Source of the DNA: a bacterium GBS-1
Lineage (GTDB): Bacteria; Synergistota; GBS-1
Assembly: GCA_001443005.1 (NCBI GenBank)
Contig: LEKQ01000001.1
Coordinates: 594,542-658,541, forward strand
DNA: 64,000 nt
Reading direction: 5' to 3'
Positions 1-41,570 of the stretch are shown here, piece by piece. The translations under genes and the position numbers were made by a program. Numbering within the stretch: the first letter of the stretch is position 1; every line of letters begins with the position of its first letter. A model generated the notes under the pieces. The model saw only the letters and a list, made by a program, of their open reading frames with translations, did no database searches and had not been told where the DNA came from.

Positions 1-344
1 CAGCATCTGATAGCTTCTTAATCAAGCGAGTTCCGTTAGTTGTAGTTAAAACAGCGCGCTTTCCCTTTATCATATGAGCGTTCTCCATAACATCGGTAGG
101 AGAGTTATCGAAGTCGAACCCAGGTATCTTAGCCCCTCCCCTCTCCCCCATTAGAAGGATATCGGGGTTTTCCCTCTTTAAGGACTTAGCTTCCCTTATA
201 GAAGATGTGATAAAGAGCGAGTCCCCACCATAAGCGAAGAAAGTAACTATAGTGGATGTGGCTCTTATTACATCCAGAGCTATCCATAGAAAATCCTCCT
301 TAGGCAAGGGCTCTGAGAGAGAAGACAAAAGGTAAACCTTCATA
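1..344 (-). CDS. 2-phosphosulfolactate phosphatase (ComB) family protein, N-terminal part only; C-terminus lies beyond the window start
   Basis: Not in the ORF track because it runs off the window. My own minus-strand translation from the ATG at 344 gives MKVYLLSSLSEPLPKEDFLWIALDVIRATSTIVTFFAYGGDSLFITSS..., with the ComB-type LDVIRATSTI motif. Confidence 0.55.
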
Positions 345-4417: not shown

Positions 4418-5571
4418 ATCGTCGGACCTATTCTGGTTATCGCGAACTCACCATGACCAAGCTGCTCTGACTTAGTCATCTTTCCATTTATCACAGAAAG
4501 CATTTCCTTTATGATTCTGCGCCCAACCTCTTCAACCGTTTCGATCCCCAGTATTATAGTTCCTGCATTGATATCTATGTTATCGGACATCCTCTCCCAA
4601 GTCTTGGGATTACCAGTAATCTTTATAACCGGAGCAATGGGGCAACCAACGGGTGTTCCCCTTCCCGTGGAAAAGAGAACCAATTGAGCTCCACCTGCCA
4701 CCATGCCGCTCACCGACTGAACATCATGCCCTGGCGTATCCATTATCCACAGCCCTTTGCCCTTAGGCTGCTCCGCATATTCAACCACGCCTTGAATTGG
4801 AGACCTCCCAGCCTTAAGGATGCAACCAAGGGATTTTTCCTCTATCGTCGTTATACCACCTTCAATGTTGCCTCTCGTCGGCTGAGTCCCTCTTAAATCG
4901 ACGCCCATCTTCAAAGCGTCCTCTTCAGCTCTCTTTACGATCTCGTATATACGCTTAGCTACATCTTCGTTAACCGCTCGCTTGGCCAATATGTGCTCCG
5001 CCCCTATAAACTCGGGGGTCTCCGATAATATCGACGTTCCACCCGAGCTAACCACGAAGTCCGAAGCAACTCCCATGGCAGGGTTCGCCGCTATCCCAGA
5101 GGTGGCATCCGAACCACCGCACTCAAGAGCAATCACGATATGGGATAGATCTATGACCTCCCTCACCATCCCAGACAGATCCGAAAGCATGCTCTCAGCT
5201 ATGGCTATCCCCTTATCTATAGCCCTTAAGGTTCCACCTTCTTCCTGAATCACCAGGACCTCGACCTTCTTCCCCGACTCCGATATCCTCTCAGCCAACA
5301 TATAGGGATCGAGCTTCTCGCATCCGAGCCCAACCACCAGAACCGAAGCCACGTTGGGATTCTTACCAACCCCAACAAGGGTCCTCAGGGTTTGCTCATA
5401 GTCAACGCCAAGCTGTCCACATCCCTCATTATGAGTTATAGACACGCTTCCAGGAACACTCTTCGATATGGCTAAGACCACCTCATTGCTACAGACAACG
5501 CTCGAAAGTACAAGAAGGTGGTTTCTAATCCCAACTGAACCATCGGGCCTTATATAACCCCATAGTTTCAT
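4414..5571 (-). CDS. UxaA-family dehydratase large subunit (altronate/galactarate dehydratase C-terminal domain; SuyB-like)
   Basis: 385 aa matching the UxaA/GarD C-terminal region; 4-nt overlap with the upstream small subunit gene. Confidence 0.8.
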   Translation of the reverse strand: MKLWGYIRPDGSVGIRNHLLVLSSVVCSNEVVLAISKSVPGSVSITHNEGCGQLGVDYEQTLRTLVGVGKNPNVASVLVVGLGCEKLDPYMLAERISESGKKVEVLVIQEEGGTLRAIDKGIAIAESMLSDLSGMVREVIDLSHIVIALECGGSDATSGIAANPAMGVASDFVVSSGGTSILSETPEFIGAEHILAKRAVNEDVAKRIYEIVKRAEEDALKMGVDLRGTQPTRGNIEGGITTIEEKSLGCILKAGRSPIQGVVEYAEQPKGKGLWIMDTPGHDVQSVSGMVAGGAQLVLFSTGRGTPVGCPIAPVIKITGNPKTWERMSDNIDINAGTIILGIETVEEVGRRIIKEMLSVINGKMTKSEQLGHGEFAITRIGPTM

Positions 5572-5876
5572 CTCCCACCACCCTCTCCCTTAAGCAAGTC
5601 GCCTCTTCCCCTATTACTCACAACGTTATGAACATGCACCCAATCCCCAACCTCGATATCTCGCGTAGCCCTACCTATAACCTCACCGTACTTTATGACA
5701 TCGCCATCCTTTGGAATCCTCCTAACGGCAAACTTATGGCCAAAGGGTATGTCCGCGATCACCCTTACCTCCCTAGACTGGTTAGAGATTCTCACTAACG
5801 CTATCTCACCAGCTTGAATGTCTTCAAGAGCTGTAGCCACGTTATCTGCCCCATCAAGTAAAAGAGCCCTTTTCAT
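5568..5876 (-). CDS. UxaA-family dehydratase small subunit (SAF domain; SuyA-like)
   Basis: 102 aa; SAF-type segment IPFGHKFAVRRIPKDGDVIKYGEVIGRATRDIEVGDWVHVHN; overlaps the large subunit start. Confidence 0.7.
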   Translation of the reverse strand: MKRALLLDGADNVATALEDIQAGEIALVRISNQSREVRVIADIPFGHKFAVRRIPKDGDVIKYGEVIGRATRDIEVGDWVHVHNVVSNRGRGDLLKGEGGGR

Positions 5877-12235: not shown

Positions 12236-13373
12236 GGCTAAACACCTCTTTAATCGCATCAACTATCTCCCAAGGAGATATCATCTTGCCATCAACCCTA
12301 TTAATTCTAACAGCTTTCCTACAAATGCATCTTTCCACCTCTCCTACAAGCTGCCCCATGTTCATCTCAGGCACGACAACAACCTTAGCTCTTTTCGCAT
12401 ACCCCTCTACAACTTCGCCAGGGAAAGGCCAAAGGGTTTGTAACTGCAAAAGCCCAGCTCTTATCCCGCCCTCCCTCAGCATGTTAACTGCATCCTTGGC
12501 AGACCTCGCTGTACACCCATAGGCTACGATAAGCACGTCAGAATCCTCAACCCTATAGGTCTTATAATAAGTTATCTCCTTCCTATAAAACTCTATCTTC
12601 TTGTGAAGTCTCCTTATAAGCTCATTCGCCACCTTATGGTTATATGTTGCTGGGAAGCCCTCCTCATCATGTACATTACTAGTTACGTGATATCTGTACC
12701 CCTTACCGCGATAGGCGAAATCAGGAACACCGTCAGGCCCAGCGGCAAAAGGCTTATATTGCTCAGGCGGCAAGTTAGTAACTCTCCTATTAACTATCCT
12801 TATCCTGCTCGGATCTGGCAAAGTTACCTTCTCCCTTACGTGACCAACCACCGCATCGGAAAGAAGGATCACCGGATTTCTAATGAGCTCAGATATATTA
12901 AAGGCCTCTATAGTTAACTCAAAGGCCTCTTGAACCGTAGCAGGGCATAAGACAACTATAGGATGGTCTCCATGCGTTCCCCACCTCGCCTGCATGACAT
13001 CTCCCTGCGCAGGAAGGGTCGGTAAACCCGTGCTCGGCCCACCCCTTTGCACATCCACTATGACGCAAGGAATGTCAACTATTGTGGCATATCCCAAGTT
13101 CTCCTGCATTAAGGTAAATCCAGGACCACTCGTTGCAGTCATGGCCTTAAAACCAGCCATAGATGCTCCTATAACCGCAGCGATGCTAGCTATCTCATCC
13201 TCCATCTGAATGAATACCCCACCTACCTGAGGCATCCTAAGAGCCATCATCTCGGCTATCTCTGTAGCTGGAGTTATCGGATAACCCGCGAAGAACCTCA
13301 CTCCAGCTAAGATGGCTGCCTCAGCTATAGCCTCATTACCTTGCATGAATCGCACATCCTCCTTAAGGCTCAT
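12228..13373 (-). CDS. korA: 2-oxoacid:ferredoxin oxidoreductase alpha subunit
   Basis: 381 aa; GNEAIAEAAILAGVRFFAGYPITP alpha-subunit N-terminus. Confidence 0.85.
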   Translation of the reverse strand: MSLKEDVRFMQGNEAIAEAAILAGVRFFAGYPITPATEIAEMMALRMPQVGGVFIQMEDEIASIAAVIGASMAGFKAMTATSGPGFTLMQENLGYATIVDIPCVIVDVQRGGPSTGLPTLPAQGDVMQARWGTHGDHPIVVLCPATVQEAFELTIEAFNISELIRNPVILLSDAVVGHVREKVTLPDPSRIRIVNRRVTNLPPEQYKPFAAGPDGVPDFAYRGKGYRYHVTSNVHDEEGFPATYNHKVANELIRRLHKKIEFYRKEITYYKTYRVEDSDVLIVAYGCTARSAKDAVNMLREGGIRAGLLQLQTLWPFPGEVVEGYAKRAKVVVVPEMNMGQLVGEVERCICRKAVRINRVDGKMISPWEIVDAIKEVFSHA

Positions 13374-13597
13374 TCCTCTTCCCCCTCCCGCACCTCAACA
13401 GCATAATCAGGACACCTGAGCTCACAGCTTCTACAACCTACACACATCTCCTCGCGCATAACCCTAACCTTACCATCGCTTGTAAACTCAAAAACCTTCT
13501 TAGGGCAAAACTCTACACATATACCACAAGACTTACACCACTTAGTATTCAGAACAACCTTAAACCTCTTAGTCAAGGCAATCACCCCTTCTTTCAA
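13370..13597 (-). CDS. 2-oxoacid:ferredoxin oxidoreductase delta subunit (2x[4Fe-4S] ferredoxin)
   Basis: 75 aa with two cysteine clusters, CKSCGICVEFCP and CVGCRSCELRCP. Confidence 0.8.
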   Translation of the reverse strand: MKEGVIALTKRFKVVLNTKWCKSCGICVEFCPKKVFEFTSDGKVRVMREEMCVGCRSCELRCPDYAVEVREGEEE

Positions 13598-13602
13598 AGC
13601 GC

Positions 13603-13821
13603 TTAGCCGCCCGACATGATATATGTAACTACTATCTCGTCACCATCCCTAACTATCCTCGAGCTATACTCCCTCCTGGGCAAGACATCCCTATTCAAGA
13701 ACACAGTCATATAAGAGATATCATAACCAAGCTTCTCTAAAAGCTCCCCCACGGTCATCTCACCTTCCAAATTAACTTCCCTATTATTCACCTTAACAAG
13801 CATCTCCTCCATTTCCTCCAA
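13603..13821 (-). CDS. ThiS/MoaD-family small sulfur-carrier-like protein
   Basis: About 66-72 aa ending in GG (…DGDEIVVTYIMSGG); true start probably the ATG giving MLVKVNN... Confidence 0.55.
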   Translation of the reverse strand: MEEMEEMLVKVNNREVNLEGEMTVGELLEKLGYDISYMTVFLNRDVLPRREYSSRIVRDGDEIVVTYIMSGG

Positions 13822-26337: not shown

Positions 26338-26350
26338 TTTGAAACCCCCT

Positions 26351-26366
26351 TTCTTAAATTTAAGAA
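26351..26366. promoter_or_regulatory. Perfect 16-bp palindrome TTCTTAAATTTAAGAA abutting the tctC (copy 2) Shine-Dalgarno; candidate operator
   Basis: Read directly; shares the TTCTTAAA / TTTAAGAA half-sites with 21902-21919. Confidence 0.4.
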
Positions 26367-26523
26367 GCTTTGCTTAAAAAGCAAATATTACCAGTTTCAC
26401 CTCCTTCCTTATGTTAAACTCTCTGTTTAAAGTATAGCAAAAGAAGAACCATCTTTCGAGATCTCCAAAACCTTTTCGGGAAAAGATGTGCTGAAAAAAT
26501 CTCTTAAATTTTTTAGTCTATTC

Positions 26524-26997
26524 TTAAAAGCACCTTTTTCTGAGATTAAACCTTCTTAAAATGGGCAGAAACATGCCTCCAACGAGAGCTAACGCCCCAA
26601 GAGCGCCGGGCCTGGAGGAGATTTCACAACCGCCGCACCACCAGTCAAAGTCAACCCTTATGCTACGAGGCCCCCACCATGTAGAATGACCGTATTCATC
26701 CTCAACCTTAACGCATACATCGTACCACCCCTCGTACCACACCCTATACCATAGAGTGTCGCTCCACTCCACCTCAACGCCATTCACATACCATGTATAG
26801 TAAATGTAATCACCATCAGGATCATAGGCTTCAACGCGCCCCTTTATGATCGCATATTCATCACACCAATCGTATTCGTAATAATCCACATCCAACCAAA
26901 CGTTCGTTATTATAGGAGGCGAGTTCTGCCCCAAAGCATATCCAGATATACATAAGAGCAAGACAAGGGAAACAAGCGATATCTTAAGCCCCTTCAA
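26524..26997 (-). CDS. Small secreted W/Y-rich PKD-like domain protein with a C-terminal hydrophobic/basic tail
   Basis: N-terminal signal peptide (MKGLKISLVSLVLLLCISGYALG); DPDGDYIYYTWYVNG PKD-like core; tail CGGCEISSRPGALGALALVGGMFLPILRRFNLRKRCF; 4-nt overlap with upstream gene. Confidence 0.5.
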   Translation of the reverse strand: MKGLKISLVSLVLLLCISGYALGQNSPPIITNVWLDVDYYEYDWCDEYAIIKGRVEAYDPDGDYIYYTWYVNGVEVEWSDTLWYRVWYEGWYDVCVKVEDEYGHSTWWGPRSIRVDFDWWCGGCEISSRPGALGALALVGGMFLPILRRFNLRKRCF

Positions 26998-28232
26998 ATG
27001 AAACTTCCTCCCTTAGCGCGTTCCATCAAATCAAGGAGAACTTCAACCACCTTTTGAGCAAACTCAGGATCATTTATGTTGTTATCGAGCTCGTAAACTG
27101 GTATCCCAGGTCTAAGATTAGCCTTTATCGAATCGAAGCAAGCCCTATCAGCCTCAGGATCCCAGAAGGCTTGACCAGGACTGTCAAGCATGGAAACACC
27201 CTTTAGCGGTATAAGCACGGCCACCGGCCCCTTGCTTTCGTTCGCCGCCCTAGCTATCCACTCCCCTATGGCTTTGTTTTCTTCAACGTTCGTCCTAACC
27301 AAGGTGACATTAGGATTCCACTCGTATATCTTTCTGCCCCTATACTTCTCCGGAACCGTATCTTTCGCCCAGAAATTGATCATATCGACACAACCCGGAA
27401 CTAAAACGGCAGGGATACCTCTTCTTGCAGCAGCAAAGAGCCTATCCTTCCCCGCCGATAGAACCCCTCCACCTATCTCATCAGCTAACTCCGTAGTCGT
27501 TATATCAGCCACAGCTGAAACCAAGCCCTGATCAATGAGCATCTCCATGGTTCTCCCACCGGTCCCAGTAGCGTGAAACACCAGTATCTCAAAGCGATCG
27601 CCCAAAAGCTCTTTAACCTTCTCGACGCACGGTGTCGTGTTCCCAAACATGCTTATAACTATAACTGGCTTCTCAGGCTCCTTAAGCATCTCCTCATAGG
27701 CACCATGCTCAAGCATCCCCGCGAGCGCCCCCACGGCGTTCTTATAAATCGCCCTGCTAATCCTATTTAAGCCAGCCACATCAACTATTGAGGGAAACAT
27801 CACTATATCCTTAATCCCAACATATCGAGATACATCTCCACCAGCAACCGTAGACACCATCACCTTAGGAATACCTATGGGCAAAGCTTGCATGGCCGTT
27901 GTGGCTATTATGGTCCCAGCGCTTCCTCCCATACCAAGTATGCCATGAAGATTCCCTTCATCATATAACCTCCTAACTACCTCCTTAAGCCCCTTGGTCA
28001 TCGTATCCATCGCTAAGCTCTTATCCTTTTTCGCCTGGAGCTCCTCTATGCTCACTCCCCCCGCCTTTGCCACCTCTGCCCTCGTTATATCTGGTTCGAA
28101 GAAGGGCTTCCCCATCACACCAAAATCAACCACAATAACCTCAAAACCAGAGCTCTTGAGCAGATCCCTAACGTAGGCAAAATCCTGCCCTTTGGTATCT
28201 AAGGCACCGACTAAAACAACCTTCTTAGTCAT
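26994..28232 (-). CDS. Tm-1-like / UPF0261-family protein
   Basis: 412 aa; N-terminal MTKKVVLVGALDTKG and overall resemblance to UPF0261; recognised from memory of the family. Confidence 0.6.
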   Translation of the reverse strand: MTKKVVLVGALDTKGQDFAYVRDLLKSSGFEVIVVDFGVMGKPFFEPDITRAEVAKAGGVSIEELQAKKDKSLAMDTMTKGLKEVVRRLYDEGNLHGILGMGGSAGTIIATTAMQALPIGIPKVMVSTVAGGDVSRYVGIKDIVMFPSIVDVAGLNRISRAIYKNAVGALAGMLEHGAYEEMLKEPEKPVIVISMFGNTTPCVEKVKELLGDRFEILVFHATGTGGRTMEMLIDQGLVSAVADITTTELADEIGGGVLSAGKDRLFAAARRGIPAVLVPGCVDMINFWAKDTVPEKYRGRKIYEWNPNVTLVRTNVEENKAIGEWIARAANESKGPVAVLIPLKGVSMLDSPGQAFWDPEADRACFDSIKANLRPGIPVYELDNNINDPEFAQKVVEVLLDLMERAKGGSFI

Positions 28233-28247
28233 ACTATCCTCCCTCCC

Positions 28248-29087
28248 CTAACGAGCAAGCCTCAGCGACTTAAAGGCCTCAACCTGCGCTTTTATCGCCC
28301 TCTCTGTAGGCAGGCGCTCGATGCTTGAAGCGCCAAAGAACCCCACGACACCAGGCATCATCGCAAGAGCCTTACCCACATTCTCAGGCTCATCGAAAGG
28401 CCCTCCATGGCATATCACCAGTATATCCTTTCTAACTCTCTTAGCAGCTTCAGCGATAGACATCACCTTCTCAACGGCTTGCTCCAAGGTCATGGCCACA
28501 CCAGCTCCTATCGTACCACCGGTAGTTAAACCAACATGAGCAACGATAACATCAGCACCAGCCTTAACCATCTCAACGGCCTGGTCCTCATCAAACACAT
28601 AGGGTGTGGTAAACATATCAAGCTCATGAGCTATCCTTATCATCTCGATCTCCTTATCATACCCCATACCTGTGGCCTCAAGGTTAGCCCTGAAGTTACC
28701 GTCAATTAGACCAACAGTTGGGAAGTTCTGAACGCCGGAGAAACCCATTTCCTTAAGCTCCCTTAAGAAAACGGGCATAAGCCTAAAGGGATCTGTGCCG
28801 CAAACGCCAGCCAAAACAGGGGTGTTTTTCACAACCGGCAAGACCTCCCTCGCCATCTCAACAACTATAGCGTTAGCATCACCATAGGGCATAAGACCCG
28901 CTAGGGAACCTCTCCCACCCATCCTGAATCGACCAGAATTATAGATAACTATCAGATCTATTCCACCAGCCTCAGCCATCTTCGCGGATATCCCTGTTCC
29001 AGCTCCACCACCCACTATGGGCCTTCCAGCCTCGATCTGAGCGTGAAGGCGAGCTAATATTTCTTCCCTCGTAAAACCGATCTTCAT
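28248..29087 (-). CDS. PEP hydrolase-like TIM-barrel protein (usual partner of UPF0261)
   Basis: About 280 aa; start set to the ATG (MKIGF...) preceded by GGAGGTG; track ORF extends to a GTG at 29096. Confidence 0.6.
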
Positions 29088-29124
29088 TAGCAACACCTCC
29101 CTTAAAAAAATCTTTTCTGACTAT

Positions 29125-29154
29125 ATTATAAAGCTTAGACAATCTTTATATCAA
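29125..29154 (-). promoter_or_regulatory. Candidate promoter for the long minus-strand array (upstream of the PEP hydrolase-like gene)
   Basis: Minus strand reads TTGATA (29154-29149), 18-bp spacer, TATAAT (29130-29125); lies in the divergent gap shared with the eamA-like gene. Confidence 0.35.
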
Positions 29155-29162
29155 CTTAAAAG

Positions 29163-30035
29163 ATGACAGGATCAAGGAAAGCTGATAAAATATTTAAAGG
29201 AATGAAAAGGCTATTACTCTTCCTAGGGGTCTTTATAGTTTCCTTCTCTGGAATAATGATAAGATTAAGTTCCGCTAACCCCTCTTCTATCGCCTTTTAC
29301 AGATGTCTAATAGCTTCCCTATGCTATGCATTAGCTTTGAGAGGAAGCTTTAAAAGGTTCGACCTTAAGAAGGAATTGCTCCTTTTGGTCGCCGGAGCCT
29401 TCCTTTCCATGCACTTTTTCTTCTGGATAAGCTCCTTCGAACATACTACGGTGGCAGGTGCTGTCATTCCCTTGATGCTTCAGCCCTTCCTAACATCGAT
29501 AATTTCCTTCCTACTTTACAGGGAAAGGGTATCCCCCACTCAAATCCTAGCGACCTTAATAGTCCTTTCAGGAATAACGCTGATGATGTTCTGGGATGCA
29601 AAGGCTTCCATTAGGCTATCCTTTGGAGACTTACTCTCCCTTATAGGAACCGTTTTTTTATGCGGGTTCATCCTAACCGGGAAATACCTAATCCCTAAGA
29701 TTGGAACCCTTAACTTTAACCTGAGAAGCTATGTAATTGCAAGTTTAATTCTCTTTCTAGCAAGTTATGAGAGATCCATGCAGGTCTTTCCGCTAAGAGA
29801 GTGGCTTATATTCTCAGGCCTTGGGGTAGGGTGTTCCTTCTTAGGCTACACGCTAATTAATAATTCCTTAAAGTTCTTCGGCGCAGGCACGATAGCGATG
29901 GCCTTGGTTGGCGAACCCGTGCTTAGCATATTATGGTCCTGGGTCCTTTTGGGCGAGAAAGCAACCTTTCCTCAGTTTTTCGGCCTTCTAACATCTATCG
30001 TCGGAATGATCATCTTCTTTAGAGCGAAGCTTTAA
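29163..30035 (+). CDS. EamA/DMT-family transporter
   Basis: About 10 predicted hydrophobic helices in a two-repeat arrangement; real start may be the ATG at about 29202. Confidence 0.7.
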   Translation: MTGSRKADKIFKGMKRLLLFLGVFIVSFSGIMIRLSSANPSSIAFYRCLIASLCYALALRGSFKRFDLKKELLLLVAGAFLSMHFFFWISSFEHTTVAGAVIPLMLQPFLTSIISFLLYRERVSPTQILATLIVLSGITLMMFWDAKASIRLSFGDLLSLIGTVFLCGFILTGKYLIPKIGTLNFNLRSYVIASLILFLASYERSMQVFPLREWLIFSGLGVGCSFLGYTLINNSLKFFGAGTIAMALVGEPVLSILWSWVLLGEKATFPQFFGLLTSIVGMIIFFRAKL

Positions 30036-32493: not shown

Positions 32494-33268
32494 AAACCTC
32501 TGGTGCCCTGTCCTTAAAGACAGGGATCATCTCCCTGACCTCCTTAACCTTATCTACATTTATCTCTGCAAATATGACCGTTTCAATATCGCTCCCACCT
32601 GCTATAATATCGCCCCATGGGTCGATCACCAGAGAGCTTCCACCAAACACCAGGTCACCCTCCTGACCGCACCTATTAACCCCTATAACATAGCATTGAT
32701 TCTCTATAGCTCTTGCCTGAAGCAGTATCTTCCAGTGGTTTATGCGCGCTAACGGCCACTGGGCGGGAACGAAGATAACCTCCGCTCCCTTCAAGGCGAG
32801 CGATCGAAAAAGCTCGGGAAAACGAAGATCATAGCAAATAGTTAAACCGCATTTCACCCCTTCTAGCTCAAAGAGACAAAGATCACTTCCTCGCTCAAAG
32901 ACTCGATCCTCACCCATAAGCCCAAAGAGGTGTATCTTCCTATAAACCCCAAGGAGCTTCCCCATCCTATTAAATACAAAGGAAGTATTATATATTTTAC
33001 CCTTATCAATAAAGGGGATACTGCCTCCAACTACGTTAACGTTATAGTGGCTAGCAATATCCATTAAAAACTTTAAGGTTTTAGGGTTTTCATTTGACGC
33101 AATTTCTCTTAAGTTCTTAATATCGTAGCTCGTGTCCCACATCTCCGGAAGAATCACGATATCGGGGTTCTTCCCTTTCGTCCTCTCAAGTAAAGCTTTT
33201 ACCCTCTGCCTATTGGCCTCTGGATCACCGAGCTTTACATCAAACTGAAACAAAGCCACTTTAAGCAA
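32480..33268 (-). CDS. Carbon-nitrogen hydrolase (nitrilase superfamily)
   Basis: Catalytic E/K/C context (ILPEMW, KIHLF, ICYDLRFPE). Confidence 0.8.
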   Translation of the reverse strand: MLKVALFQFDVKLGDPEANRQRVKALLERTKGKNPDIVILPEMWDTSYDIKNLREIASNENPKTLKFLMDIASHYNVNVVGGSIPFIDKGKIYNTSFVFNRMGKLLGVYRKIHLFGLMGEDRVFERGSDLCLFELEGVKCGLTICYDLRFPELFRSLALKGAEVIFVPAQWPLARINHWKILLQARAIENQCYVIGVNRCGQEGDLVFGGSSLVIDPWGDIIAGGSDIETVIFAEINVDKVKEVREMIPVFKDRAPEVYGLS

Positions 33269-33332
33269 TTTAATTCCCCCCTCTTAGTATTCGAACTCAT
33301 GAAATATTATATCACCTTTTCGCAAGCCCCCG

Positions 33333-33378
33333 TTGACTTTTAGAGCGCTTTAGATTATATTGATTTTAAAAGCGCTTT
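33333..33378 (+). promoter_or_regulatory. Candidate sigma-70-type promoter of the TAXI-TRAP operon with two AAAGCGCTTT-type palindromic boxes
   Basis: -35 TTGACT (33333-33338), 17-bp spacer, -10 TATATT (33356-33361); box AGAGCGCTTT at 33342-33351 and perfect palindrome AAAGCGCTTT at 33369-33378. Confidence 0.4.
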
Positions 33379-33392
33379 AAGGGGGGATAAGC

Positions 33393-34394
33393 ATGAAAAG
33401 GTTAGCCTTAGCAATTTTGATCGTTGCTTTAGGGTTCTCGCTGTTTGCAGGTACAAGTTTAGCCCAACTTAAGTTTATAGTCATAGGAACAGGTTCAACA
33501 GGAGGAACCTTCTATCCAGCTGGAACCGTCTTAGCGAACACTTTCAACACTTATCTCAAGGATCTGGGAATCAAGTGGTCAGCGCAGGCATCTGGTGGAA
33601 GCATAGAGAACCTATCGATGCTTTCAAGGAAAGAGATACAAATGGGGATAGCAGGAAGCGCACCAGCCTCTTGGGCATACGAAGGCAAGGAAATGTTCGA
33701 GGGAAAGCCAATTAAAAACATCAGAGCTATAACGACCTTGTGGCCGGAGATGACTCAAGTGATATACAGAAAGGACTCTGGGATAAAGCACTGGAAGGAC
33801 CTCAAAGGAAGAAAAGTAGCTGTTGGTCCTGCGGGAAATCCACACTTCTACATGGCATCGCTCCTTAAGGCAACCGCTGATTTGACCTTTAACGACATAA
33901 TTCCAGAATATATGGGATACGGCGATTCGGTAGAAGCCCTCCAAAGCAGACTTATAGATGCAGCTTACCTTTCCGCTGGAATCCCAACACCTGCCGTAGC
34001 CCAAGCCTACGCAGGTAGAGTTCCAGTAGATATGCTTGAGATATCCGATGAAGAGCTCGATAGACTCCAGAAGATAGCGCCTTTCTATGTTAGAGGCATT
34101 ATACCCAAGGGAACTTATCCAGGACAAGACAGAGACCTTAAGGTGGCCGCTAACCCCACGGTCTTGCTTGTGGAAAAGGACCTACCAGAAGATATAGTCT
34201 ACAAGATGGTCGAGGTTATCTACGCAAAGGCACTAGATGAGATAAGAAAACAGCATAAGGCCTTATCTTACCTGAGCTTAGAAAGCGCAACACAGGTGGG
34301 AGGAATTCCTTTCCATCCTGGCGCCATAAAATTCTACAAGGAAAAGGGAATAAAGGTAAGCGAGGATATAATACCTCCAGAGATGAAGAAGTAA
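33393..34394 (+). CDS. TAXI-family TRAP transporter solute-binding protein
   Basis: Signal peptide followed by IGTGSTGGTFYPAG TAXI motif. Confidence 0.8.
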   Translation: MKRLALAILIVALGFSLFAGTSLAQLKFIVIGTGSTGGTFYPAGTVLANTFNTYLKDLGIKWSAQASGGSIENLSMLSRKEIQMGIAGSAPASWAYEGKEMFEGKPIKNIRAITTLWPEMTQVIYRKDSGIKHWKDLKGRKVAVGPAGNPHFYMASLLKATADLTFNDIIPEYMGYGDSVEALQSRLIDAAYLSAGIPTPAVAQAYAGRVPVDMLEISDEELDRLQKIAPFYVRGIIPKGTYPGQDRDLKVAANPTVLLVEKDLPEDIVYKMVEVIYAKALDEIRKQHKALSYLSLESATQVGGIPFHPGAIKFYKEKGIKVSEDIIPPEMKK

Positions 34395-34422
34395 ATTAAG
34401 GTAAGTAAAGCGCTTTCTCTCC

Positions 34423-34462
34423 AAAAGGTGGTGTCGCTAGCTTGAACGACACCACCTTTTTA
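34423..34462 (+). terminator. Rho-independent terminator or attenuator after the TAXI binding-protein gene
   Basis: AAGGTGGTGTCG-ctagcttgaa-CGACACCACCTT followed by TTTTTA; a third AAAGCGCTTT box lies at 34407-34416 just upstream. Confidence 0.6.
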
Positions 34463-34492
34463 TAATTTTACAGATGAGGGGGAATTAAGGGT

Positions 34493-36370
34493 ATGCGCAA
34501 GCTTAGTGGAAAGACAGCAACGTGGGCTTTAATATTTGCCGTTTTCGTTTCCCTATTTCACGTATGGATGAATAGCATAGGCCTAACGGAGATAATAAAG
34601 AAAAACATAGCACATGTATGCTTACTTATGTCTCTTGCATTCCTATACTATCCTGCAACATCTAAATCTCCAAAGGATAGACCCTCCTTATTAGACTGGG
34701 TTTTTTCCTTTATATCTATAGCCATTACTATTTACTTCTTCCTAAGCTATGAGAAGATCATAAAGAGCGTGTTTAACCCAACGACGCTAGACTTCGTCTA
34801 TGGAATAAGTCTTATGATACTGCTTACCGAAGCCTCAAGGAGAGTGGTAGGGGTTCCCCTAACTCTTCTATCTGTTATGTTTCTAGTTTACGCTTACTTC
34901 GGTCCCTACTTTCCCGAGCCCTTCACTCATCAAGGCTATAACTTAAGAAGGATAATCATAAGGATGACCATGACTGACGAAGGTATACCTGGAATAGCGT
35001 TAATGGTATCATCCTCCTACGTGTTCATGTTCGTGCTCTTCTCAAGCTTCCTAAGGGCCAGTGGAACATCGAAGTTCTTCAATGACTTCGCCTCAGCATT
35101 AGCTGGGAAGAGAAGAGGAGGGCCAGCTAAGATAGCTATAGTGGCAAGCGCTTTAACGGGAACCATAAGCGGCAGCGCTCAAGCAAATGTGGTTACGACA
35201 GGCAGCTTCACCATCCCTCTAATGATTCAAATAGGATATAAGCCTTACTTCGCAGCAGCGGTAGAAGCTATAGCCTCCACGGGAGGCATCATCATGCCCC
35301 CCATAATGGGAGCAGCTGCCTTCATAATGAGCTCCTTCTTAGGCGTTCCCTATCTTAAAATAATGTACGCGGGTTTTATCCCTGCCTTACTCTATTACTT
35401 CAGCTTATATCACATGGTTGACTTGGGCGCTGTAAAGTGGGGGCTTGAAGGACTACCACCGGAAAAGCTCCCCAATGTCAAGGATGTGTTCAAGGAAAGA
35501 GGACATATGGTTGTTCCTCTAGTAGCTCTAATAGTCGCACTTATAATGGGCTTCAGCCCTATCATAAGCGCGCTCTTCGGGCTCGCTCTTATACTGATAT
35601 TGGGAAACTTGAGAAAATCAACCAGGATGTCATTAAAAGACATAATAAAGGCGCTTTATGAGAGCGCAATAGATTCTATATCAATCGCGGTAGTATGCGG
35701 TATAGTAGGGTATATCATAGGTGTGGTAGGGATGACCGGCTTGGGTCAGGAAATAGGATACACGATACTCCGTTTTTCTCAGGGAAACTTAACGTTAACC
35801 TTAATCACCTGCATGATAACAGCCATAATCCTCGGTATGGCACTACCTGCAGCTGCCTGTTACATAATAACAGTCACCGTAGCCGCCCCAGCGCTCATGA
35901 TGATAGGGGTTGAGCCATTAGTCGCCCACTTTTTCGCTTTCTACTTCGGAACCATGTCCGCCGTCATCCCACCCGTAGCGCTCACATCCTATACAGCAGC
36001 TGCTATAGCTAAGGCTCCACCAACCAAAGTAGCAATAACGGGACTTGGCTTAGGGATAGCTGGATTAATAATACCTTATCTATATGCTTATAATCCTGTC
36101 TTGCTATTGATAGACTTCTCTTGGGGGAAATTTATTTGGGCTATAGCCTTTAGCTTCGTAGCGCTATACTCTATGGCCATAACTGTGATAGGCGTTATCC
36201 CTTCATCGAAGGAGCTCTCGATCTACGAAAGGGGGATTTTTGGGCTCTCTTCAATATTGATGATGCCTAATTCAAACAACCTTAAGATCCTTGGTCTTCT
36301 CCTTTTCCTAGCAGCCTACATTACTCACAAAAGGCTAAAAAAAACTGATCCTCGAAAACAATTAATGTAA
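34493..36370 (+). CDS. TRAP transporter fused permease (DctQM-like, TAXI-associated)
   Basis: 625 aa polytopic membrane protein immediately downstream of the TAXI binding protein. Confidence 0.8.
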   Translation: MRKLSGKTATWALIFAVFVSLFHVWMNSIGLTEIIKKNIAHVCLLMSLAFLYYPATSKSPKDRPSLLDWVFSFISIAITIYFFLSYEKIIKSVFNPTTLDFVYGISLMILLTEASRRVVGVPLTLLSVMFLVYAYFGPYFPEPFTHQGYNLRRIIIRMTMTDEGIPGIALMVSSSYVFMFVLFSSFLRASGTSKFFNDFASALAGKRRGGPAKIAIVASALTGTISGSAQANVVTTGSFTIPLMIQIGYKPYFAAAVEAIASTGGIIMPPIMGAAAFIMSSFLGVPYLKIMYAGFIPALLYYFSLYHMVDLGAVKWGLEGLPPEKLPNVKDVFKERGHMVVPLVALIVALIMGFSPIISALFGLALILILGNLRKSTRMSLKDIIKALYESAIDSISIAVVCGIVGYIIGVVGMTGLGQEIGYTILRFSQGNLTLTLITCMITAIILGMALPAAACYIITVTVAAPALMMIGVEPLVAHFFAFYFGTMSAVIPPVALTSYTAAAIAKAPPTKVAITGLGLGIAGLIIPYLYAYNPVLLLIDFSWGKFIWAIAFSFVALYSMAITVIGVIPSSKELSIYERGIFGLSSILMMPNSNNLKILGLLLFLAAYITHKRLKKTDPRKQLM

Positions 36371-36399
36371 CGGGAGGATGGGGATACGCTCCTCCCGTT
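36369..36399. terminator. Stem-loop between convergent TRAP permease and glnA (possible bidirectional terminator)
   Basis: AACGGGAGG-atggggatacgct-CCTCCCGTT, 9-bp stem, in the 32-bp gap between convergent stop codons. Confidence 0.45.
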
Positions 36400-36402
36400 A
36401 AT

Positions 36403-37743
36403 TTATAAGATGGGAAGATATCTCTTTACCTCAAACTCGGTCACCTGAGCACGATATATATCCCACTCCTTCTTCTTATTACGGATAAAGCTCTCGAACA
36501 CATGGTCTCCCAAACACTCCCTCACGAGCTCGCTTTTCTCCATCACAGATATGGCTTCCCCTAAGCTTCCAGGGAGTGTCTCTATTCCAAGTCTTCTTCT
36601 CTCCTCATCGGTAAGCTCGTAAACGTCCACCTCCACAGGTGGTGGAGGCTCAAGCCCCTCTTCAACCCCCTTAAGTCCTGCAGCCAACATAACGGAAAAA
36701 GCAAGATAAGGATTACACGCTGGGTCAGGAGCGCGATACTCCACTCGCGCTGCCCTTTCCGTGCCTATTCCAAAGGCGGGAACCCTAACTAAAGCTGAGC
36801 GATTCTTTCTCCCCCAGCATATGTAAGCAGGAGCCTCATAACCGGGTATCAGGCGCTTATAAGAGTTAACCCACTGGCAAGTGATCGCCGTGATCTCACG
36901 AGAGTACTTCAAGAGACCGGCTACAAAGCTAAGCCCTATTCCAGAAAGTCCATAATATCCATTAGGATCATAAAAGGCGTTCCTATCACCCTTAAACAGC
37001 GACTGGTGAACATGCATACCACTACCATTAATTCCATAAACAGGCTTAGGCATAAAGGTCGCATAGACGTTATTCTCTAAAGCCACCTGCTTAACTACCA
37101 CCTTATACGTCATAACGTTATCAGCCATCGTTAGAGCATCTGTATACTTTATATCAACTTCATGCTGGCTATAGGCTACCTCGTGATGACTAAACTCCAC
37201 GCTTATACCCATCTCATTCAACATGAGGACAGTCTGACGTCTGAGATCTATCGCCATATCGAGAGGCGTCGCATCGAAATACCCACCGTAGTCAAGAAAA
37301 TCAGTTCCATCCGAAGATTTAAAGTAAAAATACTCGAGTTCAGGCCCTACATAGTAGGTAAACCCCTTCTCTGCCGCTTTCTTCAGGTTACGCTTAAGAA
37401 CATAGCGTGGGTCTCCCTCAAAGGCTTTACCATCAGATGTTAAGATATCACAAAACATCCTTGCTACCCCGTACTCTTTAGGACGCCACGGAAGGATGCA
37501 AAATGTGGTAGGATCAGGCATAGCGATCATATCGCTCTCCTCAATGCGAACAAAACCCTCAATAGACGATCCATCGAAGCCCACACCCTGTTCTAAGGCT
37601 CCCGGGAGCTCATCCGCCGTTATCGTGAAGCTCTTAAGGAATCCCAAAATATCGGTAAACCAAAGTTTGATGAACTTAATGTTTCGCTCCTTAACAAGTC
37701 TCATCACATACTCCTTAGGATCACCAACCATTTTCATCTTCAT
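36403..37743 (-). CDS. glnA: Glutamine synthetase (short type I, about 446 aa)
   Basis: GS N- and C-domain layout (IKFIKLWFTDILG; GPELEYFYF). Confidence 0.85.
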   Translation of the reverse strand: MKMKMVGDPKEYVMRLVKERNIKFIKLWFTDILGFLKSFTITADELPGALEQGVGFDGSSIEGFVRIEESDMIAMPDPTTFCILPWRPKEYGVARMFCDILTSDGKAFEGDPRYVLKRNLKKAAEKGFTYYVGPELEYFYFKSSDGTDFLDYGGYFDATPLDMAIDLRRQTVLMLNEMGISVEFSHHEVAYSQHEVDIKYTDALTMADNVMTYKVVVKQVALENNVYATFMPKPVYGINGSGMHVHQSLFKGDRNAFYDPNGYYGLSGIGLSFVAGLLKYSREITAITCQWVNSYKRLIPGYEAPAYICWGRKNRSALVRVPAFGIGTERAARVEYRAPDPACNPYLAFSVMLAAGLKGVEEGLEPPPPVEVDVYELTDEERRRLGIETLPGSLGEAISVMEKSELVRECLGDHVFESFIRNKKKEWDIYRAQVTEFEVKRYLPIL

Positions 37744-37858
37744 GACCTCCTTAGCCTAAAGCTGCATTTTGTCAAATTATACCCAGCCAAGTTCACAGAA
37801 GTTTTTCAGGATTGTTACAAATTTGTTTCCTAATAGCGATCAGCAATTAAACTTAAAA

Positions 37859-38566
37859 TCATTCTTCCTCATCACTGAACTTATATCCTATGTTCCTTAC
37901 CGTCTGAATATATTTATGATCATAATCCCCAAGTTTATTTCTAAGCCTACTTATATGAGTATCAACCGTTCTACTACCACCATAATAGTCATAGCCCCAA
38001 ACTTTGTTAAGAAGCTCTTCTCTCGTGAAAACTCTACCCCTATTGGTGATAAGGAGCTTCAAAAGCTCGTACTCCTTAAAGGTTAAGGGGATAAACCTAC
38101 CCCTTAAAATCACCTTATACCTTTCCATGTCTATCATAAGGTCACCGCATCTTATCACCCTTTCATCCTTAAAAGATGAGGATCCCTTCCTCAACAACCT
38201 TCTCACCCTAAGAAATAACTCCTCAGACGATATCGGCTTAACAAGGAAATCCTTAAAAAGATTATCCTCCGCAAGAAAGGCAAAACTCCATTCCTTCTCA
38301 GAAACAAGGGCAACTATAGGAATATCTTTTGATGAAAGAAAGTTTAAGACATCACTCAAAGTGTACTCCATATCGGACAGGGATTCAAAGAGGTCTAAAT
38401 CAACGAGGAATAGGTCAAAAAAGTGTCCTTCCCTCTCAAGCTCATCAAGAAACTCGTCCGGATCCTCAAAAATCATGAGGGCAATACCCTTCCTTGAAAA
38501 CTCCTTTAAAGCATTCCTAAGATCCTCCTTCTTCGCTAAAAGAGCCAGTCTCACAAAAACTACCAC
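37859..38566 (-). CDS. OmpR-family winged-helix response regulator with an atypical receiver domain
   Basis: C-terminal OmpR/PhoB-type DNA-binding domain (TREELLNKVWGYDYYGGSRTVDTHISRLRNKL); receiver retains LVDLDL and KP but lacks the usual N-terminal acidic pair. Confidence 0.7.
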   Translation of the reverse strand: MVVFVRLALLAKKEDLRNALKEFSRKGIALMIFEDPDEFLDELEREGHFFDLFLVDLDLFESLSDMEYTLSDVLNFLSSKDIPIVALVSEKEWSFAFLAEDNLFKDFLVKPISSEELFLRVRRLLRKGSSSFKDERVIRCGDLMIDMERYKVILRGRFIPLTFKEYELLKLLITNRGRVFTREELLNKVWGYDYYGGSRTVDTHISRLRNKLGDYDHKYIQTVRNIGYKFSDEEE

Positions 38567-38596
38567 CTTCCAGGAAAGAAAGCGATATTTTTAAAA

Positions 38597-39913
38597 TCAC
38601 GCCTCCAAACTCTCTTCCGCAATACCCAAGAGCTTGGCCACATCCTCATAGTTAGGACCGTAAATGCCTTCAAGTATATTCATAGAAGAGGCCATATAAT
38701 CTAATAGGTCCCTATCGCAGAGCTCCTTTAGCTTTAAATAAACTCTACCATCTAACTTCCCACCTTTTACATCCCTCTCTATTACGCTTAAAGCCTCTAG
38801 GGGGCTCATCTTCGGTCTATAGGGCCTTTCCTCAACTAAGGCGGAAAAAACATCACAAACCTGAAGGATTCTCTGCGATAAACTCAACCTATCACCGGTT
38901 AAGCCCAAGGGATAACCCGTTCCATCGAGCCTCTCGTGGTGAGCAGCGGAGATAATCCCTAGATGCTCTAGACCCGCCCTCTTAAGCATCTCATAGGTAT
39001 CCACCACATGCATACGCATTATTAGAGCTTCAGTATCATCAAGTGGACCCTTCTTATGCAACACCTCAAGAGGTGTTTTGATCTTCCCAACATCATGAAA
39101 CAAAGCAGATATATTTATAAGTTTAGCATCTTCCTCACTTAGTAGCTCCTGAGCTATAATCTCGGAAAACTTGAAAGTTAAAAAGGTATGATTCCTCGTA
39201 TAGGGGCTACGCAAATCGATAAGCGCTGCTATAACCTCAGCGAATCCCTCTATCTCATCCAGTGAAAGCGTTTTAGAGGAGGTAAAGCCCTCGTCATCAT
39301 CAAGAAGAGCATTTAAAACCCTGTAGTCCTTTAAGATATCCATGGTAACTCCATTAACTTCCTCCAATGTTCCGGCCTCATTATCCACAAAATGAAAAAT
39401 AGATTTAAACAAATCCGGCTTAAGCTCAGCGTCTTCAGACTTAATATGAGCTATAGAGATCATGTCGGCGATTCTAATGGAGTTTGCAAGTATCCTTATA
39501 AGATCGTCACTCTCATCTATCATCTGATAGGGTGTATGGTGATAGAGGATCGCCTTAGCACACCTCGGACAGAGAGGTTTGACGCGCATAGCGATTAGAT
39601 AGGACAGCATAGGATGGTCGTTAGATTTATCAAAAGTTAAAACTAACTTTTCCAGATCTGAAAAGTTTCTAAACATATCCTTAAAGAGTTCGTAATTCAT
39701 CAGCGAAGCTTTAACAGCAAGGCCGATATCGTGAAACAACCCCGCAAGATACGCGCAATCAAGATCAACGGATAAAGCTAACCTTTTTAAGATCTCTCTC
39801 GTTATCTTAGCCACCTGAAAGCCATGCCTGATGAAGTTCTTATACTCCAATACACCAAACTCGCGAAAGAGCCTCACCATGGACGCCAAAGGAAACTTAA
39901 GGACGAGCTCCAA
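38597..39913 (-). CDS. Tandem HD-domain protein with C-terminal HD-GYP (putative c-di-GMP phosphodiesterase)
   Basis: First HD (LFHDIGLAV, HHTPYQ), second HD-GYP (LFHDVGKIKTP, HHERLDGTGYPLGL). Confidence 0.75.
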   Translation of the reverse strand: MELVLKFPLASMVRLFREFGVLEYKNFIRHGFQVAKITREILKRLALSVDLDCAYLAGLFHDIGLAVKASLMNYELFKDMFRNFSDLEKLVLTFDKSNDHPMLSYLIAMRVKPLCPRCAKAILYHHTPYQMIDESDDLIRILANSIRIADMISIAHIKSEDAELKPDLFKSIFHFVDNEAGTLEEVNGVTMDILKDYRVLNALLDDDEGFTSSKTLSLDEIEGFAEVIAALIDLRSPYTRNHTFLTFKFSEIIAQELLSEEDAKLINISALFHDVGKIKTPLEVLHKKGPLDDTEALIMRMHVVDTYEMLKRAGLEHLGIISAAHHERLDGTGYPLGLTGDRLSLSQRILQVCDVFSALVEERPYRPKMSPLEALSVIERDVKGGKLDGRVYLKLKELCDRDLLDYMASSMNILEGIYGPNYEDVAKLLGIAEESLEA

Positions 39914-40060
39914 ACAAAATCACCTCCTCAACATCGTGATTATAGTATAACATAAGAGAAAGCCGTTTCAAATACGTTTAAAGATGTTAAGCATAAAGCT
40001 ATTAATACATTAAATAAATTAATACAAAATGCCACTTTTTATGTGTTTAATGACATAGTA

Positions 40061-40089
40061 TAGACACATCTTTAGGTCTATGATATAAT
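40061..40089 (+). promoter_or_regulatory. Candidate near-consensus promoter directly upstream of the histidine kinase gene
   Basis: -35 TAGACA (40061-40066), 17-bp spacer, extended -10 TGaTATAAT (40081-40089); predicted start site within a few nt of the GTG at 40098. Confidence 0.4.
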
Positions 40090-40097
40090 TTAAAACC

Positions 40098-41570
40098 GTG
40101 TGGATTAGGCTTAGAACTGGAATCAGAACAAGGATCATTCTCTTAACCCTCTTTATGGTTTGCGTTCTCCTTGTTTCGGGGTGGCTAAATGTGAAGCTAT
40201 TTAGCAGGGCAACGGAGACGATGATGTCCCTTTCCGAAGAGAGGAGTACACTAGACTACATTAGAACTCTAGAGGAAATTTTAGAAAGACTAAGGGTAGA
40301 TTTCGAGATATTAGCTTTAATTAGGGATGGTTGGCTACCCCCCACACTTAAAACGCTCCAGGAAGTCGAAGCTTATGTAAGAATTATCGAAGAGAAGGAA
40401 GCCATTGAAGAAAGCTTAAGGGAGGCTTTCCATGAGCTTAAAGGCCACATAACGGGTTTAACCCCTCCCTTTGATGATAAAAAGTTCAGGGAAGCTAACA
40501 AGCTACTAAAACAATTAAGAGAATCCGTAGAGGAATTATCACACAAAGTAGAAGCCAAGATTATAAAGATAGAAGCGAACTTTAGAACATTCCTTGAGAG
40601 CTCAAGAAGACTATCTTGGAACATTCTAATAGTAGCTATGATATTTACTACCATTTTAGCTTACCTTATAGTAAGGGAACATATGAAAACTAGCCTCGCT
40701 ATAGTTAACCATCTTAAGAACATAACCAGTCAGATAAAGAGTAACTCCTTCCCTGTGATTCCCCCTCCGTTGAAGGCAATGCTACCCGAAGGGGAAAAGA
40801 TAGCCGAATACATAAATGAGCTTGTTAACCAACACAATATAAGCCTTAAAAGGATTAGGGAACTAAGCGAAGCCAAAACCGCCTTCCTGGCGATAGCGTC
40901 TCACGAAACTAAAACACCCTTAACCTCGATAATCGGCTACTCGGAGATACTCCTAGAGGAAGATATCCCTCCTAAGCTTAAGGAGAAACTCACCATCATA
41001 AGATCTCAAGCTCAGACTCTACTTAAAACGATGGAAAGGATGCTATCCTATTCAAGGCTCGGCTCCGACATCAACCTATCTAAAGTAAATTTAAGGGAAC
41101 TCCTAGAAAAGGTTGGAATGGAATTTGTGGAAAAAGCGAGAGAAAAAGGAATAGATTTCAAGATTAATATACTAAGTAATAATACGACCATAGAAACTGA
41201 CCCCTATAGGCTCGAGATAGCCTTAAGGGAGATCTTAGATAATGCCTTTAAGTTTGCCCAAAATGGTTACATAGAATTAACGTTGAAAATTATCAAAGAT
41301 CGTGCTATCATAGCTGTAAAAGATAGCGGTCCCGGAATAGAAGAAGACAAAAAAGATATGATATTTGAACTCTTCTACCAAGGAGAGGGCTTCTTAACTA
41401 GAAAGCACAGCGGCTTAGGTTTGGGTTTACCCTTAGCTTTAAGAGCTATTAACGGTATAGGAAAGATCACCTTTAAAAGCCAAAAAGGGAAGGGTAATAC
41501 CTTCTATATAATCCTCTACGGAGGGGGGATCTTAAGTTGGTCAAGCTCACGAGAAAACTCGAAACCATAG
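40098..41570 (+). CDS. Sensor histidine kinase (two TM segments flanking an extracytoplasmic region; HisKA + HATPase_c)
   Basis: H-box ASHETKTPLTSIIGYSEIL; C-terminal G-box GLGLGLPLA; hydrophobic segments at aa about 10-30 and about 160-185. Confidence 0.8.
   Translation: MWIRLRTGIRTRIILLTLFMVCVLLVSGWLNVKLFSRATETMMSLSEERSTLDYIRTLEEILERLRVDFEILALIRDGWLPPTLKTLQEVEAYVRIIEEKEAIEESLREAFHELKGHITGLTPPFDDKKFREANKLLKQLRESVEELSHKVEAKIIKIEANFRTFLESSRRLSWNILIVAMIFTTILAYLIVREHMKTSLAIVNHLKNITSQIKSNSFPVIPPPLKAMLPEGEKIAEYINELVNQHNISLKRIRELSEAKTAFLAIASHETKTPLTSIIGYSEILLEEDIPPKLKEKLTIIRSQAQTLLKTMERMLSYSRLGSDINLSKVNLRELLEKVGMEFVEKAREKGIDFKINILSNNTTIETDPYRLEIALREILDNAFKFAQNGYIELTLKIIKDRAIIAVKDSGPGIEEDKKDMIFELFYQGEGFLTRKHSGLGLGLPLALRAINGIGKITFKSQKGKGNTFYIILYGGGILSWSSSRENSKP

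Follow-up and report, generated by a model that had tools for sequence, protein, structure and literature searches.

We put forward a model for two neighbouring genes of bacterium GBS-1 (Synergistota) in which a UPF0261 (Tm-1-like) protein would act as an ATP-to-ADP kinase and a partner (β/α)8-barrel protein would act on the phosphorylated product. The two genes lie on the minus strand and exactly make up positions 26994-29087 of the stretch that we analysed, 64,000 nucleotides (nt) of contig LEKQ01000001.1 (positions 594,542-658,541, assembly GCA_001443005.1), hereafter called the window. With a third gene for a small PKD-like protein they form a unit with a σ70-type candidate promoter of its own, which ancestrally would have led straight into the gene for a ComB-family phosphatase. 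The UPF0261 protein would phosphorylate a hydroxyl of a small polar metabolite, probably a carbohydrate-derived one, and the barrel would then bind the phospho-compound through a phosphate site following strands β7 and β8 and convert it, for example by cleavage, isomerisation or elimination. The ComB-type phosphatase, where present, may remove the phosphate afterwards. We hold this reading as a whole, which is drawn from sequence comparison, with moderate confidence.

The locus adds one ordinary member to a gene pair that is already known, widely conserved and functionally open; the pair occurs in bacteria, archaea, fungi and plants, including the tomato virus-resistance protein Tm-1, and is unusually conserved. 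A preliminary description of the window had drawn attention to the pair at the head of a long gene array and had suggested that it may catalyse a committed pathway step or serve as a sensor; the observation is confirmed and the interpretation partly supported. In what follows the window is compared with three related loci, L091, L001 and L088 (together the four relatives; L001 and L002 come from GCA_030153785.1, Synergistota). The unit consists of the following features.

29125-29154, minus strand: σ70-type promoter-like site, TTGATA-18 nt-TATAAT, matching the consensus at 11 of 12 positions, with cores invariant in the four relatives.
29094-29100, minus strand: Shine-Dalgarno sequence GGAGGTG, 6 nt 5' of the ATG start (29087), unchanged in all four relatives.
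28248-29087, minus strand: PF09370 'phosphoenolpyruvate (PEP) hydrolase-like' (β/α)8-barrel protein of 279 amino acids, from its PF09370 and PDB 2P10 matches.
26994-28232, minus strand: UPF0261 / Tm-1-like ATP-binding protein of 412 amino acids, a putative small-molecule kinase, from Pfam, NCBIfam and Tm-1/MarK structure matches.
26524-26997, minus strand: small, predicted secreted PKD-like open reading frame (ORF) of 157 amino acids with a TTG start, from sequence reading and orthologs in L001, L088 and L091.

The UPF0261 protein retains the catalytic residues of a characterised kinase

The families that the preliminary description had assigned to the two genes, Tm-1-like (UPF0261) and PEP hydrolase-like, were borne out by profile searches and are essentially certain. 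The UPF0261 gene begins 15 nt after the barrel stop codon, and its product matches, each from end to end, the Pfam domains PF06792 (E 3e-63, 213 bits against a cut-off of 27) and PF23189 (E 6e-90, 301 bits, cut-off 27), and in addition the NCBIfam family NF002674 (581 bits, cut-off 335). Among PDB sequences it matches Tm-1 (3WRY, E 4e-83) and, over its full length, MarK (9MPY, E 1.5e-73). The further statement that no function was established for the bacterial pair stands in so far as the literature library searched yielded no paper assigning a function to the pair or to PF09370; what it did yield, besides the report on MarK, was a paper on the evolution of Tm-1-like proteins, a mention in phylogenetic profiling and a note on signature-tagged mutagenesis in Brucella. 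It has been overtaken for the UPF0261 family, as MarK (Saro_1862 of Novosphingobium aromaticivorans), a member of it, was described in 2025 as an ATP-to-ADP kinase acting on phenolic hydroxyls, which fixes kinase chemistry for the UPF0261 fold (PMC12624787).

MarK is reported to be active as a homodimer, with neither a partner protein nor a barrel. Its ATP is placed at the N-terminal residues D14/T15/K16 and its substrate acetovanillone in the C-terminal domain at G195 and H219, the pocket being lined by T196, F283, I285, H304 and H348, of which H304 provides π-stacking and is reportedly more than 90% conserved among MarK homologs. The ATP and acceptor sites lie ~25 Å apart, a gap left unexplained, and the gene adjoins those for acetovanillone carboxylase and phosphatase, of the acvCDEF/hpeCBAD type (PMC12624787). 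We mapped these residues onto the window protein through an HMMER alignment and counted their conservation in 67 family sequences. D14/T15/K16, G195 and H219 correspond to D12/T13/K14, G197 and H220, and these are close to invariant in the family, with G197 and H220 present in all 67 sequences, D12 and K14 in 66 and T13, the lowest, in 63; the Tm-1 counterpart of K14 is K20. The pocket residues are replaced throughout, T196, F283, I285, H304 and H348 becoming N198, M284, N286, W305 and L349, and position 305 is Trp in 53 and His in 14 of the same sequences. As the key residues are kept and those of the pocket replaced, the window protein appears to retain the catalytic apparatus with an acceptor site that is more polar and not MarK-like. 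A more polar pocket would thus set the barrel-partnered UPF0261 members apart from MarK, the sole characterised kinase.

The partner is a highly conserved barrel with a candidate phosphate site

The barrel gene starts at the ATG at 29087, since a longer ORF, opening with a GTG at 29096, begins within the Shine-Dalgarno sequence. Its product matches PF09370 (COG5564) over the full profile (E 7e-129, positions 1-267 of 267) and the structural-genomics protein 2P10 (Mll9387, E 5e-109). Identity among the four relatives is 95-97%, against 70-79% for their UvrD and 59-79% for their CoaE proteins, and across phyla it is 62-83%, with two outliers at 39-40%; copies from Chloroflexota (Anaerolineae) are 80-83% identical and a haloarchaeal plasmid copy ~64%. 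Such conservation points to a strongly constrained enzyme, and its pattern, judged from these identities, speaks for extreme constraint or, alternatively, for horizontal gene transfer across phyla.

The barrel resembles 4ML9, an uncharacterised barrel 'with the conserved phosphate binding site', and further likenesses extend to indole-3-glycerol-phosphate synthase (IGPS), triosephosphate isomerase, the 2-keto-3-deoxy-6-phosphogalactonate (KDPGal) and 2-keto-3-deoxy-6-phosphogluconate (KDPG) aldolases, TrpA, members of the PEP-mutase/isocitrate-lyase group and ketopantoate hydroxymethyltransferase (KPHMT). It is no closer to the PEP/pyruvate-type barrels than to those of the IGPS, triosephosphate isomerase and KDPG-aldolase types; as the likenesses are spread over so many kinds of barrel, the name 'PEP hydrolase' has no specific support. 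A profile search of PDB sequences for a remote characterised relative returned only 2P10 and a weak match to FabK (E 0.0067), and the sequence profile found no PEP-utilising family. Two invariant motifs, H227-G-G-P following β7 and G252-A-S-S following β8, the latter with a short helix, resemble a standard phosphate-binding site in sequence and predicted secondary structure.

Structure prediction, a course that the preliminary description had proposed, was applied to the barrel and to a fusion of the two families. In an AlphaFold2 model the invariant residues K36, Y49, R55, D99, N121, H184 and H227 are placed at the ends of the β-strands on the C-terminal side or close to them, and for both reasons we regard them as candidate catalytic residues. 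The loops 56-65, 98-100 and 189-195, which are also invariant, were modelled with low confidence and are probably mobile active-site loops. A natural prokaryotic fusion (P0391) gave a predicted local distance difference test (pLDDT) score of 84 and a predicted template modelling score (pTM) of only 0.62, a prediction that does not settle how its domains would meet.

The promoter and the small PKD-like gene belong to the unit

The candidate promoter that the preliminary description had placed upstream of the pair holds up on comparison. Flanking sequence diverges between the window, L091, L001 and L088, yet the core elements TTGA and TATAAT are unchanged in all of them, as is the Shine-Dalgarno sequence, and this gives the candidate phylogenetic support.

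The coupling to the small PKD gene was likewise upheld, with a reservation about the name. The TTG start of the small ORF at 26997 lies in a 4-nt overlap with the UPF0261 stop codon and is preceded by a good Shine-Dalgarno sequence, AAGGGAGGAAG. The ORF stands directly 3' of the pair in all four relatives, with the same 4-nt overlap in L001 and L088; in L091 the ORF as called starts 50 nt downstream of the UPF0261 stop. Its identity among the four is 50-59%, so that it evolves much faster than the two enzymes to which it is coupled, and its retention behind the pair at this level of divergence marks it as a real gene. The product combines a predicted signal peptide with one Ig-like/PKD-like domain, and its C-terminus runs from a CGGC motif, in the context W-W-C-G-G-C, through a hydrophobic stretch into a basic tail rich in Arg and Lys. 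Its match to Pfam PKD (E 0.3, 11.5 bits, cut-off 23.5) and that of an ortholog (E 0.017) both fall below the cut-off, and in an exhaustive search the domain matched tandem repeats of large surface proteins that Pfam calls PKD_4, PKD or PKD_3, so that, by repeat homology, 'PKD-like' appears a fair description. The tail bears a weak likeness to MYXO-CTERM or another C-terminal sorting signal, scoring under the MYXO-CTERM cut-off both here and in the ortholog of L001. We detected the small ORF solely in this Synergistota lineage, and in the 87 loci described below only as four copies from one sister genome.

The unit is older than the array behind it

The pair is positionally first in a same-strand run that reaches base 1 of the window, and much of this run is a catabolic array. 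The features flanking the unit are the following.

26338-26523, minus strand: 186-nt gap between the three-gene unit and TctC, the upper edge of an insertion/deletion, with no terminator and a weak promoter-like site.
344-26337, minus strand: accessory catabolic array, context outside the three-gene unit, from Pfam annotation.
1-343, minus strand: N-terminal part of a ComB-family gene (PF04029, 2-phosphosulfolactate phosphatase; E 1.4e-31), cut by the window edge.
29163-30035, plus strand: EamA-family transporter gene, divergently transcribed (PF00892, E 1e-33) and syntenic in all four relatives.

Pfam annotation, which covered bases 349-34394, gives the order of the array as TctCBA, an iron-containing alcohol dehydrogenase (Fe-ADH), a second TctCBA set, a short-chain dehydrogenase/reductase (SDR), an FGGY kinase, an aldolase like dihydrodipicolinate synthase and IlvD/Edd, followed by 2-oxoacid:ferredoxin oxidoreductase, succinyl-CoA-synthetase-like, D-2-hydroxyacid dehydrogenase, aldehyde:ferredoxin oxidoreductase, UxaA-like, Ldh_2 and LarA-like genes and another IlvD/Edd.

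Sister genomes lack this array. The closest UPF0261 relatives among the matches listed are from Synergistota metagenome-assembled genomes (84-86% identity), and in L001/L002 and L088 the order is CN-hydrolase, UvrD, CoaE, EamA (divergent), barrel, UPF0261, small ORF, ComB-family phosphatase and CRISPR-Cas; Tct and sugar-acid genes are missing from the interval that separates small ORF and comB in L001 and L088. A BLAST comparison aligns L001 4975-11618 with window 33259-26630 as a single block, and the L001 ComB gene is matched at window 343-15. The ComB fragment of the window (1-343) is 67% identical to this L001 gene, which starts 4 nt after the small ORF, and the window ortholog directly follows the last gene of the array. 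Small ORF and comB are thus contiguous in L001 and L088 and separated by 344-26523 in the window, from which it follows that the 26-kb array is an insertion/deletion in an older operon, which is essentially certain, and a lineage-specific accessory block. L091 carries the array, its small ORF being followed by TctC, TctB, TctA and Fe-ADH, and CoaE and UvrD identities group L001 with L088, which is compatible with a single gain or loss. Neither tRNA genes nor meaningful boundary repeats were found at the junctions.

The pair clearly functions without the array: it heads the array by position and strand, as the preliminary description had it, and in no functional sense for which we find support. 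Separate transcription cannot be claimed, since the 186-nt gap at 26338-26523 contains no terminator and no stable structure (fold z-score +0.52), so that read-through into the array is possible; the gap also contains a weak promoter-like site (9 of 12 positions, 26459-26431) and is poorly conserved with L091.

Two further observations concern the same comparisons. A second large insertion/deletion relative to L001, of ~6.8 kb at ~33260-40100, lies between the CN-hydrolase and histidine-kinase genes and begins with an NMT1_3 binding protein, next to which a 625-amino-acid ORF at 34493-36370 probably encodes, by analogy with L091, a DctM-type permease of the tripartite ATP-independent periplasmic (TRAP) or TRAP-associated extracytoplasmic immunoreactive protein (TAXI) class; L091 shares both insertions/deletions at least partly. 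Beyond the ComB gene of the sister genomes (L001 12419-18410, L088 12597-17941) lies a CRISPR-Cas adaptation locus with Cas6, two unannotated proteins, a 593-amino-acid AEP-TOTE (archaeo-eukaryotic primase-like) protein, Cas1 and Cas2.

Pairing, fusion and neighbours across phyla

The conserved adjacent or fused pairing stated in the preliminary description is what wider searches found. Word-prefiltered protein searches, each with at least 8000 scored candidates, led to a set of 87 loci, of which 80 came from one-genome-per-species data (GTDB) covering many phyla at 51-67% identity and seven had been fetched earlier. The barrel gene is adjacent to the UPF0261 gene on the same strand in 65 of the 87 and lies within 10 kb in 72; where adjacent, it is downstream in 49 loci and upstream in 16, the window having the minority, upstream order. 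The concatenated window pair retrieves plant Tm-1-like proteins at 44-50% identity and 83-100% coverage, and fusions of 677-722 amino acids, ordered UPF0261 then barrel as in plants, also occur on large prokaryote-like contigs. Fusion of the two domains in Tm-1-like proteins agrees with an earlier report (PMC5028733).

Clustering of neighbours gave approximate counts, since the crude ORF calling behind it took up some antisense frames where GC was high (clusters 3 and 9, for example), and it revealed no universal third gene beside the pair. Of the neighbours that recur, the most specific encodes a Cupin_2 protein of ~130 amino acids; it is present in 17 of 82 non-redundant loci and often immediately upstream, and it lies between the two genes in Haloterrigena and beside a prokaryotic fusion as well. 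Less frequent are sugar or leucine/isoleucine/valine (LIV)-type ABC transporters, Gfo/Idh/MocA oxidoreductases, xylose-isomerase-like barrels, SDR, aldo-keto reductase (AKR) and zinc-containing alcohol dehydrogenase (Zn-ADH) genes, and others encode an enolase-superfamily dehydratase, a 2-hydroxyacid dehydrogenase, GH4 and a β-L-arabinofuranosidase-domain protein. The theme looks carbohydrate- or sugar-acid-like, a looser link read from raw counts. A ComB-family gene stands directly upstream of the pair in two metagenome-assembled genomes of Desulfobacterota. Tct genes were found next to the pair in none of the 87 loci, which comprise an array-lacking sister genome, Thermanaerothrix and the 80 GTDB species of other phyla; the one exception found, the relative L091, shares the array.

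Variant forms of the barrel were also seen. Short fragments resembling barrel residues 7-57 at 55% identity occur in 57 Klebsiella plasmid records and at least one listed E. coli plasmid, unannotated and probably the remnant of a gene. A Qingshengfaniella plasmid (L100, 8276-10024) encodes a 583-amino-acid 'phosphoenolpyruvate hydrolase family' protein, about twice the normal length, which may have a different domain architecture; its gene adjoins Gfo/Idh/MocA and cupin genes and lies opposite a standard pair in a sugar ABC transporter/glycosidase operon.

Weighing the alternatives

A kinase for a polar metabolite coupled to a barrel acting on its product accords with the chemistry of MarK, with the conserved catalytic residues and with a three-gene unit and promoter that are kept both with and without the array. 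Several points weigh against it. We infer kinase chemistry for barrel-partnered UPF0261 proteins by analogy with MarK, and what the substrate is and what the barrel does are inferred in turn; MarK itself works as a homodimer with no barrel. The phosphate site was read from sequence and predicted secondary structure, the invariant barrel loops were predicted with low confidence, and the AlphaFold2 prediction for the natural fusion does not settle an interface. None of the further partners is universal, and the genes behind the carbohydrate theme, which was taken from raw counts, are abundant in the sampled phyla.

The committed step or sensor originally suggested, which would have the pair co-transcribed with the downstream Tct/sugar-acid array from the promoter at 29154-29125, is unlikely. 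All genes share a strand, the gap before TctC holds no terminator, L091 has the identical arrangement, and the pair in other phyla is often found beside uptake transporters and sugar or sugar-acid enzymes; against this, two sister species keep promoter and three-gene unit without the array, the window comB (1-343) stands at the array's far end, the 87 loci first examined have no Tct genes next to the pair, and the gap is poorly conserved and holds its own weak promoter-like site. Doubtful to a similar degree is a heteromeric ATP-dependent phosphoryl relay like that of pyruvate phosphate dikinase (PPDK) or PEP synthase, in which His220 would carry the phosphoryl group and the barrel would hold an oxo-acid or enol acceptor. 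MarK, however, phosphorylates its substrate with no barrel present and has its acceptor site within its C-terminal domain, the barrel shows neither a preference for PEP/pyruvate-type folds nor a PEP-utilising family in its sequence profile, and the fusion model has no confident interface (pTM 0.62).

We consider it very unlikely that the window protein is itself an aromatic (phenol) kinase of the MarK type, acting on phenolics from lignin or elsewhere. The homology is full-length and the ATP motif, G197 and H220 are conserved, yet the five pocket residues are replaced, no acvCDEF/hpeCBAD-type carboxylase or phosphatase genes occur among the Pfam-annotated genes at 349-34394, and a homodimer active without a partner contrasts with a protein whose barrel partner is encoded next to it. 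Highly improbable, finally, is a ligand-sensing or regulatory module, a 'TIM-barrel signal transduction protein', or an antiviral role like that of plant Tm-1. Legacy annotations do speak of 'transcriptional regulator' and 'signal transduction', and the unit does adjoin a CRISPR-Cas locus in sister genomes; neither protein, however, has a DNA-binding or signalling domain, none of the three proteins had a PADLOC match at E ≤ 0.01, the conservation is enzyme-like and the CRISPR adjacency is confined to two close relatives. The model of a polar-metabolite kinase with a barrel enzyme acting on its phospho-product is the one that we retain.

For annotation, it follows from the position of the array that position alone is no basis for placing the pair in a Tct/sugar-acid pathway. 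Thousands of other genomes would serve no worse for working out what the pair does; what this locus contributes is a clean case of the pair as an operon independent of the neighbouring catabolic array, and a recurrent link to a ComB-type phosphatase and a small cupin.

Further features of the window

A search of the whole window found no paralog of either gene of the pair. The GC skew of the plus strand is negative in 31 of 32 segments of 2 kb (cumulative -7.2) and weakest at ~34-36 kb and 40-42 kb, where the plus-strand genes are located, and the large ORFs are mostly on the minus strand, consistent with one replication-strand orientation throughout. Within the array, a 523-nt gap 5' of the 2-oxoacid:ferredoxin oxidoreductase genes contains two small minus-strand ORFs (13370-13821), one of 75 amino acids with two CxxCxxCxxxCP ferredoxin motifs, by sequence probably the δ subunit, and one of 72 amino acids with a Gly-Gly end and the look of a ThiS/MoaD-type carrier. 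A 102-amino-acid ORF at 5568-5876 (minus strand), directly 5' of the gene for the C-terminal part of a UxaA/GarD-like dehydratase (4414-5571), probably encodes the N-terminal SAF-type domain of that enzyme separately.

Comparison with known systems

With MarK the window protein shares the two-domain UPF0261 fold over its full length, the D-T-K of the ATP site and the Gly and His of the acceptor site; it differs in its adjacent barrel partner, in the lack of carboxylase genes nearby (349-34394) and in the five changed residues of the pocket. Tomato Tm-1 and plant Tm-1-like proteins (PDB 3WRV-3WRY, N-terminal half) combine the same two families, and the plant domain order is the one seen in 49 of the 65 adjacent loci, the commoner in bacteria; in plants a single polypeptide carries both, whereas the window has two genes with the barrel first. 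At the position of MarK H304, Tm-1 and nearly all of the aligned fused proteins have His and the window clade Trp. The known activity of Tm-1, binding of tobamovirus replication proteins, is a plant-specific role. For the barrel, the matching structure is that of Mll9387 from Mesorhizobium loti (2P10), a structural-genomics protein labelled 'putative phosphonopyruvate hydrolase'.

Kinases paired with a barrel enzyme for the phosphorylated sugar are familiar from 2-keto-3-deoxygluconate (KDG) kinase and KDPG aldolase, and from IolC and IolJ, which are preceded by the cupin IolB; the putative kinase of the window, in distinction, has no sequence homology to PfkB or FGGY kinases. A step further, and in our view a long shot, the pair and its ancestral ComB-family phosphatase would together form a cycle in which a polar metabolite is phosphorylated, transformed and dephosphorylated, the barrel acting on the phospho-activated intermediate. 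Such a cycle would share its activation logic with the kinase-carboxylase-phosphatase route for acetovanillone; if true, it would show what the Tm-1 family as a whole, plant fusions included, natively does in biochemical terms.

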